This document shows positions 17,466 to 25,894 of a stretch of DNA of 38,089 nucleotides, one piece after another. How positions within the stretch are numbered: the stretch's first letter is position 1; every line of letters starts with the position of its first letter. Where the stretch lies: the IMG/VR virus record IMGVR_UViG_2917886563_000005; one strand, written 5' to 3'. This DNA is from a virus. Lineage: Duplodnaviria; Heunggongvirae; Uroviricota; Caudoviricetes. Under the pieces are notes generated by a model. The model did not search any database. It was not told the DNA's origin and was given only the letters and a program-made list of their open reading frames with translations. Position numbers and translations under genes: made by a program.

Positions 17466-19631
17466 TTATTGAGGTGTCTCGGCTACTCCGCCGGAGGGGA
17501 TTTGAACTTGACGCATAAGATTCGCGAAATCCATGCGTTGTGAATGAGTCTGGTCTGCGTCTTTAAGAAGCAGCTCAGCGTTAGCACGAGCATCTTTGCT
17601 GCGCTGTTGCTGGAATTGACCTACGAGCTTGAGGTACTCACGCAGTTCTGCCTGCTTGTCGAGGTCCATATTGTTGAAGATTTCTGCAATCTTCGCGGCG
17701 TTGAGTTGGTTTTGGGCTTCAACCTTGGCGGCTTCAACCTGAATCTGCGCCTGTTGGTTCTCTGCCTTGAGCAATTCAGCCTGACCTTGCAGAAGGATAC
17801 CCTGCGCCTGAATTTGCTCTGCTGATGGCTGCTGCGGCTGCTGTTGAGCCTGCTGTACCATCTCCATCTCTTCAGGTGTTTCTGGTTTCTTCAGCCCCAT
17901 CATCACCAGTTGCTTGTTCGCGTACTCTCGCATCATCTCTACGCCTTTACCGTCAAGCAGCGTGAAGTATTGCAGCATCAGCATCTGGAACTCTGGAGTA
18001 CCTTGTGGAACCTTGGTGAGTAACTCCTGAATCTCTGCGCGGTTCTGTTCCTTCATACTCTGGAAGGATGGTCCAACGTCTGTATAGCACTCATAGCGAC
18101 CGCGAATGTCGTTGAGTGTGACCACATTGCCGGACTGGTAATCGACAACTTGCGCATAGAGTTGAACGTCTTTCTCGCTTCCATCTTCAAGTGTCAGCGT
18201 TACATGACGAGGAACGTCATAAATATCGTTGACCATTGAGGCATAAATCTCTCCATCACGTCGCATTGCGGTAGCCAGGTTATCCTGAAATACGTATGTC
18301 TCAAGGTCTGCCCGCATGTTCAGTTGATTGACGGTATCGAAAGCGACCTGAGAGTTTGCTGCCTGCGCATCCACACCAAGACTAGCCACCTCTTTCACTG
18401 CGTTGGTGGCAGCCTCAAGCATGTAAGCGTTGGCTTGCGGCACTTCAGGGTTTTCCATGTAGGAGATTGGACCAATCGGCAGGTCGTTACCGTTTTCATC
18501 AGTCCTGTTCTGCAGATAGTACGGATAGTCATCATTTCCACCGTACATGTATTCGTAGCCTTCGATTTGCTCAGGGAAGAAGGTAGGTTTCTTCTTCGGT
18601 GAACGAGCAACAATATCGGCGTTGAACGACATGATCATGTTACGAAGGCGCTGACCGTCTTTCGTCAGCCTTACCACTCCTTCGTAGCACTCCTTGTCAC
18701 CAGCGAATGACCATTCACCATACACTGGAACGATTGGAATATGCTCTCCGGCTATCTTCTCGCGGTCTTTCAGTATCTGCGTACAGGTGATGATCGACTT
18801 ATACACACGCCGACGCTTGACCTTACGCTCTGCTACCTTAATGAATCCACGATTAGCCAGGTCGTCGATGACGTCTTTGATATCCTGCTGGTAATAGCTG
18901 ACCGGCTCACCTGTCAGCGGGTCGCGGTAGATGAAGACCTTCTCTTTCTTCTCTTCGACCTCGTAATACTCAGCGACGTAGACGACATCATTCGATACCC
19001 ACGGAAACAGCCATGTATCGTTCGGATTCTGGAAAGATGGCAAGGTGTCCGGATCAATACCGTAATCCTCTGCGAACTCTTTCCAGCCATTGCGTGACAA
19101 GGCGTTAATCACCGTGCAGTGCTTAGCGTCGCTCTTATCCATCTGCTTGCTGTTTGCGTCCCATATGACGTGTGAGCAGGCTTCATGGATTGGCAGGCGT
19201 CGAATTACCTGATTGTTGCTTGTTGGGTCGTTGTCTTCGTACTGTGTGACCAGACGCCATGCACCAACGCCGGACTCTATCTGCTCACGAACGCCAACGT
19301 TAACGGCAATCTTTGCCGTGTTATGGCGCATATCAGTACGATACATCCCCATCAACACATCGGCTGCATCAGGATTAGCGCCGTCTTTGGGTCGGAAGAG
19401 AACGTCGATAGGGTTCCGGCGCATCTCTGCGACCAGTTTCCTGACCACCGGGCGAACAACATCGAATTGTCCGCGATATTGCAGGGTAGTGTAGTTTGAT
19501 AGCCAGTCATCCCATTGCGACACTCGGCTAAAATACAGGTCATTTGTCGCCTCGGTTCTGGCTTCATCGCTCGCCATCCAGTCCGCGTCAAACTTACACA
19601 GAATGGAATTGAGTCTGTTTTCGTCGGCCAT
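17466..19631 (-). CDS. Portal protein, P22 gp1-like, 721 aa
   Basis: Size and position; Gln-rich C-terminal barrel region typical of P22-type portals. Confidence 0.85.
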
Positions 19632-21131
19632 TTAAGTTCTCCGTGCGATGGGCCTGATTGGGGCTGGTATCTTTTTCTCTTTTGGTTTTTTGATGTCGCG
19701 CATCATTTTGGCGAAGCGGCGCATCATGTATGCATAGCGAACGGCTGAGAGAACGTCGTCGTTAAGCTTGACGATCTTCCCGTTTTCATCACGGTGATAG
19801 AGGCGGAACTCCTCAAAGAATGGCTCACATGTGTTGAATACTTTGAAGCGACCATCAAGCATCATGTCGCGCAATTCAGTGATGCCTGGCTCAACAGCGT
19901 TACCGCCATCAGGCCATGTCGCATGCTCCTGCAACATCATAAATCCAGCGTCTGCATACTGCCCTTTGAGCTGCTCACCGCCGCCCTTCTCATGCTGGTT
20001 TCCGTCATGAGGCCATGCGGTTGGCACTTTATGCGCCCATGACTTAACGGCTCCCCAAGCCTGAACGGCTGTCTTTTCTTTCGCCTTCCACACGCGTGAA
20101 AGGTAGATTATGTCTGCATCCTTATCCCACCAAAGCTGAACCTGCGCCTGTGGGTGATCCCATCCGAAATCCATCCCGCCAATTACGTAGAAGTGATCAG
20201 GACACTCGAACGGCTGACACTTAATCGTCTCTTCAGGTATCTGAAAGATTCGACCGCTACCCATCGTAGGAATACCCCGAGCACGCGCCTCTCTCTCATG
20301 TTCAGGATAGGATGCGATGATTTGCTCTTTCTGCTCGTCAGTGTAGTGCTCAGCGTCATAGATGGTCATGTTGACCACTTTCTGCGACTTGCTGGGGTTC
20401 TTCAGGAACTTGGTAACAACGTCAGACATCCCCATCAGCGGGGTAAACGTCAGAATTGAGAATTGACCGTATTTGTTGGTACGGGTAAGCCCTTCGCCAT
20501 AAATGCTGTATGGTGGCTCTTCGTCAAACCACACACCGTGGATTGTGTCACCCTGCCAGCGAGCGCGGCCTTGCGAGTATGGCTTGAAGTAGCAGATTGA
20601 AATGCCATCTTCAACGCCATCAGCCGTGTGATGCTTAACCAGAAGATGATCAACAAGGTTCGGAAAGAAAGGAGACTTCTTCCAGCTAATGATGTCTTCT
20701 TTCGGTATGGAACCGTAGCCAGGCTCGTCATTCTCTTCGATACGACCGCACAGGATGCGTTGAGTCGTTTTGGTTACAGTCTCGTTTGTCTCGCCGCCAA
20801 TCCAGAAGACAACAGGCTCATAGAAACGCTTACCTTTCCACTCCCCACCATATTTACCATCAGCCGGATAGCCTTTTGTTCCCGGATAACGCCCGGTAAG
20901 GTGAAATGCGACTTCAGCAGCACCAGTAAATGACTTACCAAGCTGGTTACCAGCCATAAAACAGCGCTCTGGATAGTCATGCCCGGCGTCGATGAACTCA
21001 CGCTGTTTGCTGTATGGCGTAAATTCATATAGCAGGTGTGTGTTACGGTAGTTCTCTTCTTCTTCGAGTAGCTCGAGCAATTCGATTTGCTCTTCGTCGC
21101 TCAGGTTATCAAGAATCGCGTCCAGTTCCAC
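19632..21131 (-). CDS. Terminase large subunit, P22 gp2-like, 499 aa
   Basis: Same length as P22 gp2; immediately upstream of portal. Confidence 0.85.
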
Positions 21132-21597
21132 GGTTGAAAAGCTCCTTGATACGAGAGCGTCGCTTATCGCGATCTCCCTTATCAGGTGTCACGTCTTCAA
21201 CTTGCGACTGCTCTTTGAGGCCCAAATCACGGGCGATGATGTTAGCGTTGAGAAGGTCAGCGGCTGCGCCAGAGAATTTCTGGTCGTAGATGACCTGTTC
21301 TGCTCGCGTAACGACTTCAGATAAATCTTCTCGCAGGCGATATGTACGCCATGTTTCAAGCGTCACATCAATGAACAGAGTGAGGCCGGTAATGGTCATC
21401 GCTCGCATCTTGGCGATAGGCTCTTGTATCACTTCACCCTGATACGAGAACGCCTTCATCTCCCATAGCGGGTTAGCTTCCACCCACTCGAAGTATTCAC
21501 AACAAGCAGCCCACAGCGCCTCAGGCGATTCGAATTTAGGATTTCGCCCATGACTACTGCGGGCCTCCCAAAATCGGTTGCCCTTTGGTGCTGCCAT
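21109..21597 (-). CDS. Terminase small subunit, P22 gp3-like, 162 aa (start at MAAPKG)
   Basis: [46 protein letters not shown]... matches recalled P22 gp3; contains the pac site. Confidence 0.85.
21309..21330 (-). other. P22-type pac site within the small terminase gene
   Basis: Reverse complement of 21309..21330 is GAAGATTTATCTGAAGTCGTTA, the P22 pac sequence as I recall it. Confidence 0.6.
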
Positions 21598-21632
21598 ATT
21601 CATCTCACTTAGTTGTCATTTCAGGCTGAGCA

Positions 21633-21875
21633 TCATGCTCCGGTAGTGAACAGGTCTAACGCTTCCTTCGATTTACGCACCGCTTCGAATGTGCGGATCG
21701 TGATATCTGAATTAGCGCCACCTGACTGGAAGTGAATTTTGAATAGCTCAAGCTTCAGCTCGTCAGTGCCAATGAATTGAAATGCTTCCTCTGCTGCTGC
21801 GTTCTGGTTCATGACCAGCTTGTAAATCTCTAACTGGAATTTCTGTTCTTCAGTCATGGGAATAATCTCTGCCAT
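21633..21875 (-). CDS. Hypothetical 80-aa protein upstream of the terminase genes
   Basis: ORF with consistent orientation in the late operon; no recognised domain. Confidence 0.5.
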   Translation of the reverse strand: MAEIIPMTEEQKFQLEIYKLVMNQNAAAEEAFQFIGTDELKLELFKIHFQSGGANSDITIRTFEAVRKSKEALDLFTTGA

Positions 21876-22232
21876 TGTTGGCTCCGTTTATCCGTTAAAA
21901 GGGATATCAGCTAAGTTATCCCGTGTAGGGTATAAGCCATTGTCGAGACCACTCATTGAATGGTCTCTGCAATAACCGATGTCTTTCCATCAGTCCGCCA
22001 CCACAAAGAATCTTTTTTGCCATAAGGCAGGAGGTTCATCTTTCAGTGGCTGCCAGTGTTATTTCCCCACTTACTGGCTTGGGTTGCTTCGTGGTACTGC
22101 CGTAACTGGTTGCCAAGAATAAATTCCGGTTTCATTATCAAGCCCACCCGTAGATGGGCTTTGTAATGGATAGCCGTTGCTCAGTTCTCGTAATGCTTTG
22201 ATTTTTCCGATAACGCAGTTTTGCGTTTGCCA

Positions 22233-22754
22233 TCAGCACGCGATATCGAGAGTCAACTGCAGTTGCTCGCGCCAGTACTCAACATTTGCTTCAATAACCG
22301 GCTTATCCCATCGCCAGCGAGCCATCTCTCTTGCCCCATTGCTGGCTTTTGATTTCCGGTCATCGCGAATGCGACATGCTTGCTCATATTTCTGCTGCTC
22401 AGTCAGTTCACCGCGAAGCAGACTATCAATGTGCAGGTCGCACCACACAGCAAAACGAGCATCACACCAACGGGCAAATGCAACTGAAAGTTTTGGATGT
22501 AGCCACGTACCACCACCCCTGTCCTTTCGTGCCTTGCTGGTTTTTACATACCTCGATTGTGAGGGATGTAAAATTTGAGATTCTTTCCCGGTCAACGCTT
22601 CGTCTAAAGCACGAACGTATTCAAGCGTTTCTGCCAAACGCATCCAGTTATCAATGCGTTTCCCAAATCTCTCAGCAACACCTGTGACGTTGATCCAACC
22701 ATCAGTGTTGAAACTGACAACTTCGCCTTTGTAATTAAGTGGCACGATATTCAT
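22233..22754 (-). CDS. KilA-N domain protein, 173 aa
   Basis: ...GGGTWLHPKLSVAFARWCDARFAVWCDLHI... is the KilA-N signature region. Confidence 0.7.
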   Translation of the reverse strand: MNIVPLNYKGEVVSFNTDGWINVTGVAERFGKRIDNWMRLAETLEYVRALDEALTGKESQILHPSQSRYVKTSKARKDRGGGTWLHPKLSVAFARWCDARFAVWCDLHIDSLLRGELTEQQKYEQACRIRDDRKSKASNGAREMARWRWDKPVIEANVEYWREQLQLTLDIAC

Positions 22755-22869
22755 AACGTTTACCTACTCTTTGAAATGAACCTTTGCCGCACAGGAAACC
22801 AGCCCACCGAGGCTCGCCAGCACTAACTGGTATCCTCAAAGGCCCATTCCAAAGGGTCAGGTTCGGTGT

Positions 22870-22926
22870 AAAAAAACATGCGTTGCGGTACGCATTTATT
22901 GCAAAAAAGCCCCGCATCGCGAGGCT
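22870..22926 (-). terminator. Two tandem intrinsic terminators downstream of the lysis cassette
   Basis: Minus-strand hairpins agccucg-cgaug-cggggcu + uuuuuug (22900..22926) and augcgu-accgca-acgcau + guuuuuuu (22870..22896). Confidence 0.55.
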
Positions 22927-22957
22927 CATTAAATGGACTTTGTGATTTGCAAAAAAA

Positions 22958-23395
22958 TTATTTCAAACACTGCGTCCTAATGTAATCCTGCAAGTAGTTA
23001 ACCTGCGCGGTTATCCTGTCGATTCCACTTCGGAGACGGTAATAATTGAGTTCAGCATCTGCTGTAAGTCTTGGGCTTTCTCCATCGCCCATGCTGCTGG
23101 CTCCGGTCGTTGACTTTGCACAGGTGGCGGCGACTTGCAGGCGCTTACGACCAGCAGAAACATCAGCACGGAGACTTTCGATAGTCGCGTTAGCATCAGC
23201 AAGCTCCTTTGTATATCTGGCGTCGAGTTCTGCTACATTGCGTTGACGTTTCTGCATGTCAGCGATAATGAATGCGGCCTTATCGCGCTGTTCTTTGTAG
23301 GCGATGGCGTTATCACGGTAATGATTAACAGCCCATGACAGGCAGACGACGATGCAGATAACCAGAGCGGAGATAATCGCGGTTACTCTGCTCAT
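22958..23395 (-). CDS. Rz: Rz-like i-spanin, 145 aa
   Basis: N-terminal TM segment, coiled-coil body, directly downstream of the endolysin. Confidence 0.75.
23011..23202 (-). CDS. Rz1: Rz1-like o-spanin lipoprotein embedded within Rz in another frame (start uncertain)
   Basis: Lipobox LLVVSAC followed by Pro-rich segment, fully inside Rz. Confidence 0.6.
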
Positions 23396-23868
23396 ACCTC
23401 AATCTCTCTGACCGTTCCGCCAGCCTCTTTGAATTTTGCAATCAGGCTGTCAGCCTTATGCTCGAACTGACCATAACCAGCCCCCGGCAGTGAAGCCCAG
23501 ATATTGCTGCAACGGTCGATTGCCTGACGGATATCACCGCGATCAATCATCGGCAAAGCGCCACGCTCCTTAATCTGCTGCAGCGCAACAGCGTCCTGGC
23601 TTTTTGGAGAGAAGTCTTTCAGTCCAAGCTGTTTACGGTAAGCATCCCACCAACGGGAAAGAAGCTGGTAACGTCCGGCTGCTGTTGATTTGAGTTTTGG
23701 GTTTAGCGTGACAAGTTTGCGAGGGTGATCGGAGTAATCAGTGAATAGCTCTCCGCCAACAATGACGTCATAACCATGATTTCTGGTTTTCTGTCGTCCG
23801 TTATCTGTTCCCTCTGACCACGCCAGCATATCGAGGAACGCCTTACGTTGATTATTGATTTCCACCAT
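23392..23868 (-). CDS. R: Endolysin, lambda R-type lytic transglycosylase, 158 aa
   Basis: [39 protein letters not shown]... near-identical to recalled lambda R. Confidence 0.9.
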
Positions 23869-24175
23869 CTTCTACTCCGGCTTTTTTAGCAGCGAAGCGT
23901 TTGATAAGCGAACCAATCGAGTCAGTACCGATGTAGCCGATGAACACGCTCGTTATATAAGCGAGGTTGCTACTTAGTCCGGCGAAGTCGAGAAGGTCAC
24001 GAATGAACCAGGCGATAATGGCGCACATCGTTGCGTCGATTACTGTTTTTGCAAACGCACCGCCATTATATCTGCCGCGAAGGTACGCCATTGCAAACGC
24101 AAGGATTGCCCCGATGCCTTGTTCCTTTGCCGCGAGAATGGCGGCTAACAGGTCATGTTTTTCTGGCATCTTCAT
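23852..24175 (-). CDS. S: Holin/antiholin, lambda S-type, 107 aa with dual start (Met1 24175, Met3 24169)
   Basis: [41 protein letters not shown]... near-identical to recalled lambda S. Confidence 0.9.
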
Positions 24176-24290
24176 GTCTTACCCCCAATAAGGGGATTTG
24201 CTCTATTTAATTAGGAATAAGGTCGATTACTGATAGAACAAATCCAGGCTACTGTGTTTAGTAATCAGATTTGTTCGTGACCGATATGCA

Positions 24291-24330
24291 CGGGCAAAAC
24301 GGCATGAGGTTGTTAGCGCAACCTCATGCC
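24291..24330 (-). terminator. tR'-like intrinsic terminator (12-bp perfect stem) between the late promoter and S
   Basis: ggcatgaggttg-ttagcg-caacctcatgcc; minus-strand RNA is followed by GUUUUGCCCG. Confidence 0.6.
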
Positions 24331-24466
24331 ACCCGCTTTCACGAAGCCAGCCATTGCGCTGGTTTTCTTTTATGCAAAGCACACCGCACCGTAGCCACAG
24401 CGGATAAGGTGATTATTTTTGTCTGTCTGGTATTTGGTTTGATGTGCTTTCAGAAAGGCCGTGCTT

Positions 24467-24508
24467 AAAACGCAAAAAGCCCCGAGCTATTAACTCAGGG
24501 CTTTATTT
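24467..24508 (-). terminator. Additional intrinsic terminator ~30-60 nt downstream of the pR'-like start
   Basis: Minus-strand gcccugag-uuaauag-cucggggc followed by uuuuugcguuuu. Confidence 0.55.
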
Positions 24509-24537
24509 AACGAGTGCATTTATCCATCGTTGGGTCA

Positions 24538-24566
24538 AATTTACCCAACTTTATTCAAAAAGTCAA
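24538..24566 (-). promoter_or_regulatory. Late promoter pR'-like (-35 TTGACT, 17-bp spacer, -10 TAAATT); a Q-utilisation site is expected to overlap
   Basis: Hexamers read on the minus strand immediately downstream of Q, as in lambda. Confidence 0.65.
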
Positions 24567-24608
24567 TATTATGCCGTTAATATGTTGTCATCCGTGGCAA
24601 TCATGCTG

Positions 24609-25232
24609 CTAACGTGTGACCGCATTCAAAATGTTGTCTGCGATTGACTCTTCCTTGTGGCATTGCACCACCAGAGCGTCATACAGCGGCTTAACAGTGC
24701 GTGACCAGGTGGGTTGAGTAAGGTTTGGGATTAGCATCGTTACAGCGCGATATGCGGCGCTTGCTGGCATTCTTGAATAGCCGACACCTTTGCATCTTCC
24801 GCACTCTTTCTCAACAACTCTCCCCCACTGCTCTGTTTTGGCTATATCAACCGCACGGCCTGTACCGTGGCAATCTCTGCATCTTGCGCCCGGCGTCGCG
24901 GCACTACGGCAATAATCCGCATAAGCGAATGTTGCGAGCACTTGCAGTACCTTTGCCTTAGTATTTCCTTCAAGCTTTGCCACACCACGGTATTTCCCCG
25001 ATACCTTGTGTGCAAATTGCATCAGATAGTTGATAGCCTTTTGTTTGTCGTTCTGGCTGAGTTCATGCTTACCGCAGAATGCAGCCATTCCGAATCCGGC
25101 TTGTGATTGCGCCATCCCCATAGCAGCCATCACATCAGTACCGGAAAGAGAGTCAGAAGCCGTGGCCCGTGGTGAGTCACTCATCATCGGGCTTTTTGGC
25201 GAATGAAATTTAGCTACGCTTTCGAGTCTCAT
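24609..25232 (-). CDS. Q: Late antiterminator Q (lambda-type), 207 aa
   Basis: From [28 protein letters not shown]... matches recalled lambda Q; ATGA overlap with the upstream gene. Confidence 0.9.
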
Positions 25233-25894
25233 GCGCCTTCTCCCTGTACCTGAATCAATGTGAGGTTTCCGCATAACACTGCGCCGGTATCGATATACAT
25301 TTGGTTGGCAAATTTAAGTGGTTTCACTGCTGGCGTATGACCAAAGATGAACGTGTCCGCGCCTTTGATTTCTTTCACGATCCCGTCTTGTGAGTTGCTG
25401 ATTCGTTCGCGGTTCCAGATTACCTGCTGATGATCAACTGGCTTTCCAAACTCGTATTCGTCACAAGGATAATCGGCGTGGCAGATGACATATTTTTTAT
25501 CTTTGCTCACCAGTTCGATGATTAACGGAAGTTCATCTGCTTTATGGGCAAGAGCTTTAGCCAGAATTTCTTTGTCGTAATCGAGATTAAAGAACCAGCC
25601 ACCGCCATTAAGCAGCCAGTGATTGACGTTTCCACGCTCTGATAAGCCATCAATCATCATGTGCTCATGGTTTCCACGTACAGCTCTGAACCAGGGGAAT
25701 GTGATTAATTCCAGGCATTCAACGTTCTCTGCGCCACGATCAACCAAATCGCCAACCGAGATAAGCAGGTCTTTTTTGGTGTCGAATCCAATCGTATCCA
25801 GTTTGTTCATCAGGTTCGTGTAGCATCCGTGCAGGTCGCCAGCTACCCAAATATTTCGGTATTTGCTGCCATCAATTCTTTCGTAGATATTCAT
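25229..25894 (-). CDS. ninI: Ser/Thr protein phosphatase NinI (lambda orf221)
   Basis: Metallophosphatase motifs GDLHG...GDLVDRG...GNHE; 221 aa. Confidence 0.85.

Follow-up and report, generated by a model that had tools for sequence, protein, structure and literature searches.

P22-type phages transcribe their late operon from a single promoter, and terminators inside that operon are common and of unknown role, one suggestion being that they halt transcription that began without antitermination (PMC8022706). Between the last lysis gene, Rz, and orf80, phage P22 carries rha (orf201), whose product joins the domains Phage_pRha and ORF11CD3, and for which the part of the literature summarised in PMC4936722 records a single phenotype, a block to phage growth in hosts deficient in integration host factor (IHF). 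Here we analyse the gene that stands in the same slot of a 38,089-nucleotide (nt) stretch of phage DNA (IMG/VR record IMGVR_UViG_2917886563_000005), which in its entirety is called the window. Its late genes lie on the minus strand, and the gene in question encodes a protein of 173 amino acids (aa) headed by a KilA-N domain. KilA-N, Phage_pRha and ORF11CD3 have been grouped in a domain-swapping 'Bro network' of DNA-interactive phage proteins (PMC10111431).

Apart from Rha, two described proteins resemble that of the window. Orf11 of Pseudomonas phage D3, after which ORF11CD3 was apparently named, has the same architecture and size (KilA-N followed by ORF11CD3, with Pfam matches to both domains) and is 44% identical to the window protein over 98% of the query. 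Like the window gene, D3 orf11 is co-oriented within a late cluster and lies behind a terminator-like hairpin; however, it occupies a different position in that cluster, between head-tail adaptor and tail genes, and the sequence upstream of it gives no match to the covariance model of the leader described below and is not unusually structured (z=-0.62). In HK97, HK022 and mEp-type phages, a KilA-N::P63C gene (242 aa) directly follows Rz and is preceded by a terminator of the type named T1 below, a small hairpin (hp2) and a leader of the same family as that of the window. The KilA-N domains are 47% identical, but the C-terminal domain is P63C and not ORF11CD3, and the phages are siphoviruses with an HNH/cos packaging module.

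Regarding expression, the described cases closest to this locus concern a different kind of cargo. Homing endonuclease cassettes of the T4 type (mobE, segB and I-TevI, both free-standing and intron-encoded) are promoter-less and have hairpins that sequester their ribosome-binding site (RBS), so that, as in the window, promoter-less cargo in a polycistronic unit has its RBS in a stable hairpin and is subject to layered down-regulation (PMC2988022). By analogy, we would regard these cassettes as the closest mechanistic precedent. They differ from the window locus in that a T4 late promoter inside the hairpin gives rise to a shorter, translatable RNA, whereas a consensus scan found no such promoter in the window leader, and in that the window protein has no recognisable nuclease domain.

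The KilA-N gene in the rha slot

Based on our findings, we estimate a probability of about 60% that the window gene is a passenger cassette with no promoter of its own, carried in a late operon under Q antitermination by an E. coli P22-like phage, and that it is the KilA-N-headed counterpart of P22 rha. We read it as a counterpart of rha because the two occupy the same Rz-orf80 slot, have 5' leaders that are identical and 3' flanks that are nearly so, and encode related C-terminal helical domains; their products are also of similar size. The P22 leader is identical to the window from ~22877 to ~22768, that is, from just past the second hairpin to ~12 nt before the start codon, and the nearly identical 3' flank comprises ~180 nt of the downstream spacer (~22100-21925), which are found downstream of P22 rha and include P22 'orf25', with rha standing where the window has its KilA-N gene. 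The loci differ in the N-terminal domain, which is KilA-N in the window and Phage_pRha in Rha, and in the second hairpin, since the terminator-like hairpin T2 of the window is replaced in P22 by hp2, which there lacks a U tract. The gene lies where the original prediction had placed it, between the lysis cassette and the terminase, with Rz upstream and DUF2560/orf80, gp3 and TerL downstream (Table 1). The minus strand of the window is the late region of a P22-like phage, and in a comparison over 24 kb of the window the best-matching phages on record, all of them P22-like and from E. coli, are IME10, HZ41, APC_JM3.2, Dewey and Louie.

The N-terminal part of the protein (aa ~7-114, nt 22736-22413) matches the KilA-N family PF04383 of Pfam over residues 7-114, with 77.2 bits against a cut-off of 23.8 (E=1e-21). 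A single-sequence AlphaFold model was discarded (pLDDT 37.9) and an alignment-built model was used in its place. The domain has the alpha/beta fold that KilA-N shares with fungal APSES DNA-binding domains and its best fold match is a DNA-binding domain, and from this fold we infer that it binds DNA; a search of PDB sequences with the protein returned nothing significant. An effector domain had been suggested for the C-terminal half. The domain search does not bear this out; what it found there is a helical hairpin of ~55 aa (aa 117-169, nt 22406-22248) with an apparent relationship to ORF11CD3, the domain in which P22 Rha ends. The family phrog_518 ('Rha-like') matches residues 118-170 of the window protein (E=3.8e-9), and precomputed PF10549 (ORF11CD3) matches exist on homologues of the window protein. 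A 165-aa KilA-N::ORF11CD3 protein encoded in the same slot of other phages (50.5 bits to ORF11CD3) bridges the two, its C-terminus being 37% identical to that of the window protein and 39% identical to that of Rha. Phage_pRha (PF09669) has no match in the window protein, while the same scan gives P22 Rha 79.8 bits. Judged by these comparisons, the window gene would be a counterpart of Rha by position and C-terminal domain and not a member of the Rha family, and it most likely encodes a small DNA-binding protein whose helical domain serves interaction or dimerisation.

Copies with ~99% protein identity and the same flanks, annotated 'KilA-N domain-containing protein', are present in the Salmonella phages Emek and BIS08P22, the E. 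coli HK97-like phage HK544 and the lambda-like phage ev099; the copy in Emek is orf173, and its record notes a likeness to D3 Orf11. The segment from T1 to the stop codon is covered to at least 80% in 134 of 5,426 complete E. coli genomes and partially matched in 862. Relative to the allele carried by E212, ABTNLsp11242 and SPN3UB, the first 324 nt of the gene are 72.8% identical, the last 198 nt 99% and the downstream spacer 98%, a pattern that makes a recombination junction at the domain boundary, and with it domain shuffling, directly visible. In the N-terminal 324-nt part, 51 of the 88 differences from the E212-type allele fall at codon position 3, which argues for a real coding region under purifying selection. 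Already annotated, the gene is accessory and ordinary, in a slot well known as variable. As a common gene of P22-like and HK97-like phages of E. coli and Salmonella, it adds little by itself; it is best read as a KilA-N allele of rha, a P22/phi80 locus that has long been known and is poorly understood.

We surveyed the slot in 80 IMG/VR loci encoding an identical orf80, which are close relatives and hence a biased sample; the Rz-to-orf80 interval was delimited in 71 of these, giving 72 slots together with the window. Slot length varies from 304 to 2161 bp in phages that are otherwise near-identical. In 41 of the 72 slots there is a gene for a protein of 165-201 aa that belongs to a single BLAST-linked cluster, Rha-headed in 25 and KilA-N-headed, with several divergent types, in 16. 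Other slots contain MUG113/T5orf172, Gp49/Sf6-gp66-family, Tad2-like (Thoeris anti-defence) or trypsin-like protease genes or an IS3 element, and ten have no sizeable open reading frame (ORF). Because slot contents vary in this way, and 31 of the 72 slots are without a Rha- or KilA-N-headed gene, the KilA-N gene looks like dispensable cargo, and like a moron it is present in some and absent in other syntenic relatives. In the survey, a Tad2-like (DUF2829) gene was also seen to follow straight after T1, with the leader absent, at L009 1622-2092 (Louie), at L010 1622-2122 (IME10) and in L068; the Louie gene is annotated 'anti-CRISPR protein', and an anti-defence gene inside a late operon was unexpected.

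Terminators and a structured leader ahead of the gene

Two terminator-like hairpins lie sixty bases past the Rz stop codon. T1, AGCCUCGC-GAU-GCGGGGCU followed by U6, has an 8-bp stem, a GAU loop and a hairpin energy of -12.3 kcal/mol, and T2, AUGCGU-ACCGCA-ACGCAU followed by G and U7, has a 6-bp stem and a hairpin energy of -5.8 kcal/mol. In both, a GC-rich hairpin stands directly before a U tract, as in intrinsic terminators; a pattern scan listed T2 and missed T1, whereas RNAfold shows the two of them. The original prediction spoke of two strong minus-strand terminators, and while both hairpins with their U-runs exist, only T1 is strong and T2 is weak. GenBank annotates T1 as a rho-independent terminator in both Emek and HK544, and it occurs in 53 of the 72 slots independently of the type of cargo. 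T2 with its U-run is found in 6 of the 72, most others having at this point the 4-5-bp GCGC/GCGC hairpin hp2 without a U tract. Since the U-run is limited to these few slots, the tandem terminators are a lineage-specific elaboration, and T2 a lineage-specific form of the conserved small GC hairpin hp2. By analogy with lambda and P22 biology, Q-modified polymerase would be expected to pass T1 and T2 and unmodified polymerase would not (PMC2629481, PMC8022706).

The stretch of ~115 nt between T2 and the ATG comes in no fewer than five sequence types; these are only ~60% alike, yet have one long interrupted hairpin in common. The window leader has a minimum free energy of -46.9 kcal/mol (z=-3.58), and z-scores for single-sequence folds of the leaders lie between -2.4 and -3.6. 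For 17 distinct leaders, RNAalifold gives 38 pairs, 17 of them with compensatory double changes; 94.1% of the cells of the consensus structure are standard-paired and its covariation score is 0.366, whereas controls with the partners displaced by 1-3 columns give 36-50% and at most 0.106. In three of five leader measures, the observed values were reached by none of 500 shuffles. Read on the late strand, many of the pairs are G.U, a point in favour of a structure formed in the sense RNA. At the base of the hairpin, the Shine-Dalgarno (SD) sequence UAGGU (22766-22762), 8 nt upstream of the AUG, is paired with ACCUG at a probability of 0.99, and in most leader variants the SD pairing probability is at least 0.9. 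In the window the SD is thus paired within a stable, conserved structure, the arrangement of RBS-sequestering leaders, and the folding predictions indicate that the hairpin probably limits translation. Rfam 15, which includes the C4/isrK immunity RNAs tied to Bro-network genes, gave no relevant match in window positions 21000-24600 at E up to 1, and no tRNA was found. The leader alone, of the whole locus, seems not to have been described before.

Promoters were sought with sigma-70 consensus-based scans, namely a tool scan at a threshold of at least 9/12 and a relaxed scan accepting at least 8/12 or an extended -10. The stretch from T2 to the ATG contains no sigma-70-like site of at least 8/12, the five leader types have no conserved -10 or -35 hexamers, and no promoter-like site was found inside the leader. 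In Louie and IME10, where a different (Tad2-like) gene begins ~25 nt past T1, there is no space for a promoter. Gene-specific control looks post-transcriptional, exerted through the leader hairpin rather than through an own promoter. The original prediction of an independently regulated cargo gene in the late operon holds for the cargo, as seen in the variable slot, but not for a promoter of its own, none having been found and T1 being indifferent to the cargo; its 'independent regulation' is most likely better replaced by a promoter-less cassette with post-transcriptional throttling. An extended -10 site at 22986-22957 (-), ATTACA-18-TGaAATAAT, was rejected as an own promoter, as it overlaps the last Rz codons and stop codon and lies upstream of T1 and T2; its TG is absent in P22. 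A transcript from this site would be an RNA of ~48 nt ending at T1. Pairing of a short T1-ending RNA with the leader, on the analogy of IsrK/c4, was likewise discarded, the duplex energy of -14.3 kcal/mol being matched by 17.6% of shuffles.

A covariance model was built from terminator, hairpin and leader; it and single-sequence folds were used instead of a MAFFT alignment in which the HK97 and Oslo leaders degraded the consensus structure. The model locates a single copy in the window (22749-22925, 148 bits) and also finds the module upstream of P22 rha. HK97 has a full-length copy before its KilA-N::P63C gene, after Rz (69 bits), and in Salmonella phage Oslo the module, again at full length, precedes a KilA-N::P63C gene within the tail-gene region beside arc/ant (71 bits). 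A weaker full-length copy (42 bits, E=1.5e-7) precedes an HNH_3+AP2 gene in locus L066, a related prophage. All 50 census slots that have the leader have it before a Rha-headed, KilA-N-headed or T5orf172-type gene, and the module was found at three different late-operon positions and in both podoviruses and siphoviruses. Because copies precede other cargo genes elsewhere (HK97, Oslo, HNH_3+AP2), the sequences point to terminator and leader being a portable 5' module of this cargo class and not merely the tail of the lysis cassette. The L066 gene itself (976-1488) is homing-endonuclease-like and lies between a Q-type antiterminator gene (Phage_antitermQ) and the holin gene, behind the late terminator.

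Promoter-less carriage behind a terminator and a folded leader would operate as follows. The cassette is made up, in this order, of a terminator, a small hairpin, a covarying leader of ~100 nt that pairs the SD, and the gene. By analogy with lambda and P22, it would be transcribed only when Q-modified RNA polymerase passes T1 and T2; unmodified polymerase would be halted at T1/T2, and the gene would be silent in the lysogen and in early infection. The read-through RNA would be translated little because of the leader hairpin, a block that RNase III cleavage or another opener may lift, the near-continuous helix of ~25 bp making the leader a plausible RNase III substrate. The product would be a small dimeric DNA-binding protein, regulator- or antirepressor-like, that would not be needed for lytic growth and would do harm in excess, in line with what has been published on Rha in IHF-deficient hosts; the Rha phenotype fits a product that needs to be kept at a low level. 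The comparison would explain how cargo can be carried in a single-promoter late operon, namely as a promoter-less cassette with a terminator ahead and a folded leader over the RBS.

We also put forward, tentatively and at somewhat less than even odds, a wider proposal, according to which terminator, hp2 and the ~100-nt RBS-occluding leader together make up a portable cis-regulatory RNA module, as yet undescribed, of lambdoid phages. This module would be a 5' landing pad for domain-shuffling DNA-binding or nuclease-type cargo (Rha, KilA-N::ORF11CD3, KilA-N::P63C, T5orf172/MUG113 and HNH-AP2) and would limit translation at several late-operon positions, with RNase III or a phage or host factor as what might release it. 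If the leader is a real regulator, it would provide a concrete handle on the Rha puzzle, that of a late-operon gene harmful to the phage when misregulated, and a marker for Bro-network and homing-endonuclease-like cargo in prophages.

Weighing of alternative explanations

Several observations weigh against reading the gene as a promoter-less counterpart of rha under leader control. The window protein scores 16.2-18.9 bits against Pfam ORF11CD3 (PF10549), below the cut-off of 25, while P22 Rha, scored alongside, reaches 96 bits, and a direct BLASTP comparison of the window protein with P22 Rha is not significant. In a minority of leaders (E212 type, HK97 and Oslo) the SD pairing probability is 0.33-0.57, and SD occlusion is throughout a thermodynamic prediction. 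Consensus promoter scans would miss weak, activator-dependent or non-sigma-70 promoters, and both terminator function and Q read-through are carried over from lambda and P22 biology. The first of the alternatives is a classical moron, with its own promoter past T1/T2 and expressed from the repressed prophage, whose terminators insulate it from the late operon. The slot does behave as a moron hotspot, terminators upstream would provide insulation, and there are ~115 nt of conserved non-coding DNA ahead of the gene. However, this DNA varies by compensatory, pairing-preserving changes, sense-strand G.U pairs among them, and not around fixed hexamers; neither a site of at least 8/12 nor conserved -10/-35 elements were detected in it, and other cargo begins too close to T1, at ~25 nt. 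Nor is there a terminator after the gene, the terminator scan having found no minus-strand site in 22232-21876, where the hairpins past the stop codon lack a U tract. We therefore consider a classical moron unlikely. An equally doubtful candidate is a selfish mobile cassette, in which the KilA-N protein would spread its own cassette by a homing-like DNA transaction while terminator and leader limit the cost to the phage. The occurrence of the same terminator-leader module ahead of MUG113/T5orf172 and HNH_3+AP2 genes, at three late-operon positions and in podoviruses as well as siphoviruses, is in keeping with such a cassette, as are the promoter-less free-standing homing endonucleases of T4 with their RBS-sequestering hairpins (PMC2988022). 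Against it, domain and profile searches found no nuclease motif or nuclease-family match in the protein, whose best fold match is instead a DNA-binding domain, and the mosaic joints fall at short repeated hairpins and at the domain boundary, for which ordinary homologous or illegitimate recombination suffices.

Anti-phage defence of the BstA kind, in which the lysogen would produce a KilA-N protein that attaches to the DNA of an incoming phage during its replication and causes the infection to abort, seems to us improbable. BstA, expressed in the lysogen from a gene beside the immunity region, is ~300 aa long and has a different C-terminal domain. What it has in common with the window protein is an N-terminal KilA-N domain and its encoding by lambdoid/P22-like prophages (PMC8585504), to which may be added a single weak PADLOC hit of the window protein to the candidate family PDC-S22 (E=1.2e-5). 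Beyond this hit PADLOC gives nothing, however, and no known defence-protein model is matched; the window protein has 173 aa, with a Rha-type C-terminal part, the 55-aa helical hairpin in common with Rha, and expression in the lysogen is not expected of a gene that lies behind terminators and for which no promoter was found. We give similarly little credence to the idea that T1/T2 belong to the lysis cassette, as a 3' stabiliser of, or partial stop for, the lysis mRNA, and that their position before the KilA-N gene is incidental. This would agree with the presence of T1 after Rz in 53 of the 72 slots whatever follows, and intra-operon terminators that possibly lower downstream mRNA have been discussed for P22-like phages (PMC8022706). 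In Oslo, however, a T1-type terminator, hp2 and leader precede the KilA-N gene in the tail region, far from the lysis genes, which indicates that the terminator can travel with the cargo module.

Downstream spacer and neighbouring features

The features of the locus are collected in Table 1. The stretch of ~360 bp of untranslated sequence that the original prediction described before the next gene is confirmed, at 357 nt. This spacer is hairpin-rich (z=-5.97 relative to shuffled sequence). A coding role for it was rejected, as its ORFs of 31, 30 and 35 aa have no PHROG hits and are not conserved, being broken in relatives by a frameshift and premature stop codon in Emek and by a premature stop codon in Louie; the stop codon of P22 orf25 is not conserved either and is lost in the window.

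Table 1. Positions of the late genes and non-coding elements around the KilA-N gene, and of related leaders in other loci
Feature	Position	Strand	Remark
Q antiterminator	24609-25274	-	
Holin	23852-24175	-	
Lysozyme	23392-23868	-	
Rz (i-spanin), final lysis-cassette gene	22958-23395	-	Pfam Phage_lysis, E=4.6e-36
Rz1, nested inside Rz	23011-23202	-	ORF list
T1, terminator-like hairpin	22903-22926	-	
T2, terminator-like hairpin	22870-22895	-	
Structured 5' leader	22762-22862	-	
KilA-N::ORF11CD3-like gene, 173 aa	22233-22754	-	
357-nt spacer	21876-22232	-	
Junction hairpin A, CATTACAAAGCCC-loop-GGGCTTGATAATG	22133-22168	-	Repeated at the cassette borders of many slots
Junction hairpin B, GAGACCATTC-AAT-GAGTGGTCTC then GACAATGG	21938-21974	-	
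DUF2560 gene (P22 orf80 homologue), next late-operon gene	21633-21875	-	Pfam DUF2560, E=2.6e-42
Small terminase subunit TerS (P22 gp3 type)	21109-21603	-	Pfam GP3_package, E=3.6e-33
Large terminase TerL	19632-21131	-	
Portal	17466-19631	-	
Leader family copy, L004	1969-2150		
Leader family copy, L012	2318-2502		
Leader family copy, L013	3320-3500		
Leader family copy, L066	831-981		

Within the spacer, junction hairpins A and B are two copies of a recurrent form, CATTACAAAGCC...GGCTTGATAATG, that is found at cassette borders throughout the slot census and whose stems differ by compensatory changes. Hairpin A is retained in Louie after a different cargo gene, and a deletion in ev099 joins the hairpin A motif exactly to that of hairpin B. 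The stem of hairpin B forms a series from G-C in P22 through G.U in Louie to A-U in the window, and a version with AAAGCCA/TGGCTTT is found in Emek, HK544 and BIS08P22. These hairpins may be recombination linkers or intercistronic RNA elements.

An exact match (AATCAAAGCATTA) to the IHF consensus WATCAANNNNTTR lies at 22203-22191 (-), 30 nt past the KilA-N stop codon, where ~0.03 matches would be expected by chance in the 1.15-kb region scanned. It was rejected as a general feature of the slot, since it is found in 5 of the 72 slots, always with the C-terminal allele of the window, and is thus linked to that allele. The match may be relevant to the IHF-dependent phenotype of Rha. On the plus strand, opposite to the late operon, a promoter-like site at 22110-22138 (TTGCCA-17-CATTAT, 9/12) points into the 3' end of the KilA-N gene and could yield an antisense RNA; its -10 element reads as the junction motif GATAATG in reverse complement.

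Farther upstream, the region from Q to Rz is of the HK544/IME10 type. A terminator-like hairpin at 24480-24500 (-), just downstream of Q, is probably the late terminator tR'. Just upstream of Q there is an ORF of 221 aa at 25229-25894, and at the matching position HK544 has a gene annotated as a Ser/Thr phosphatase.

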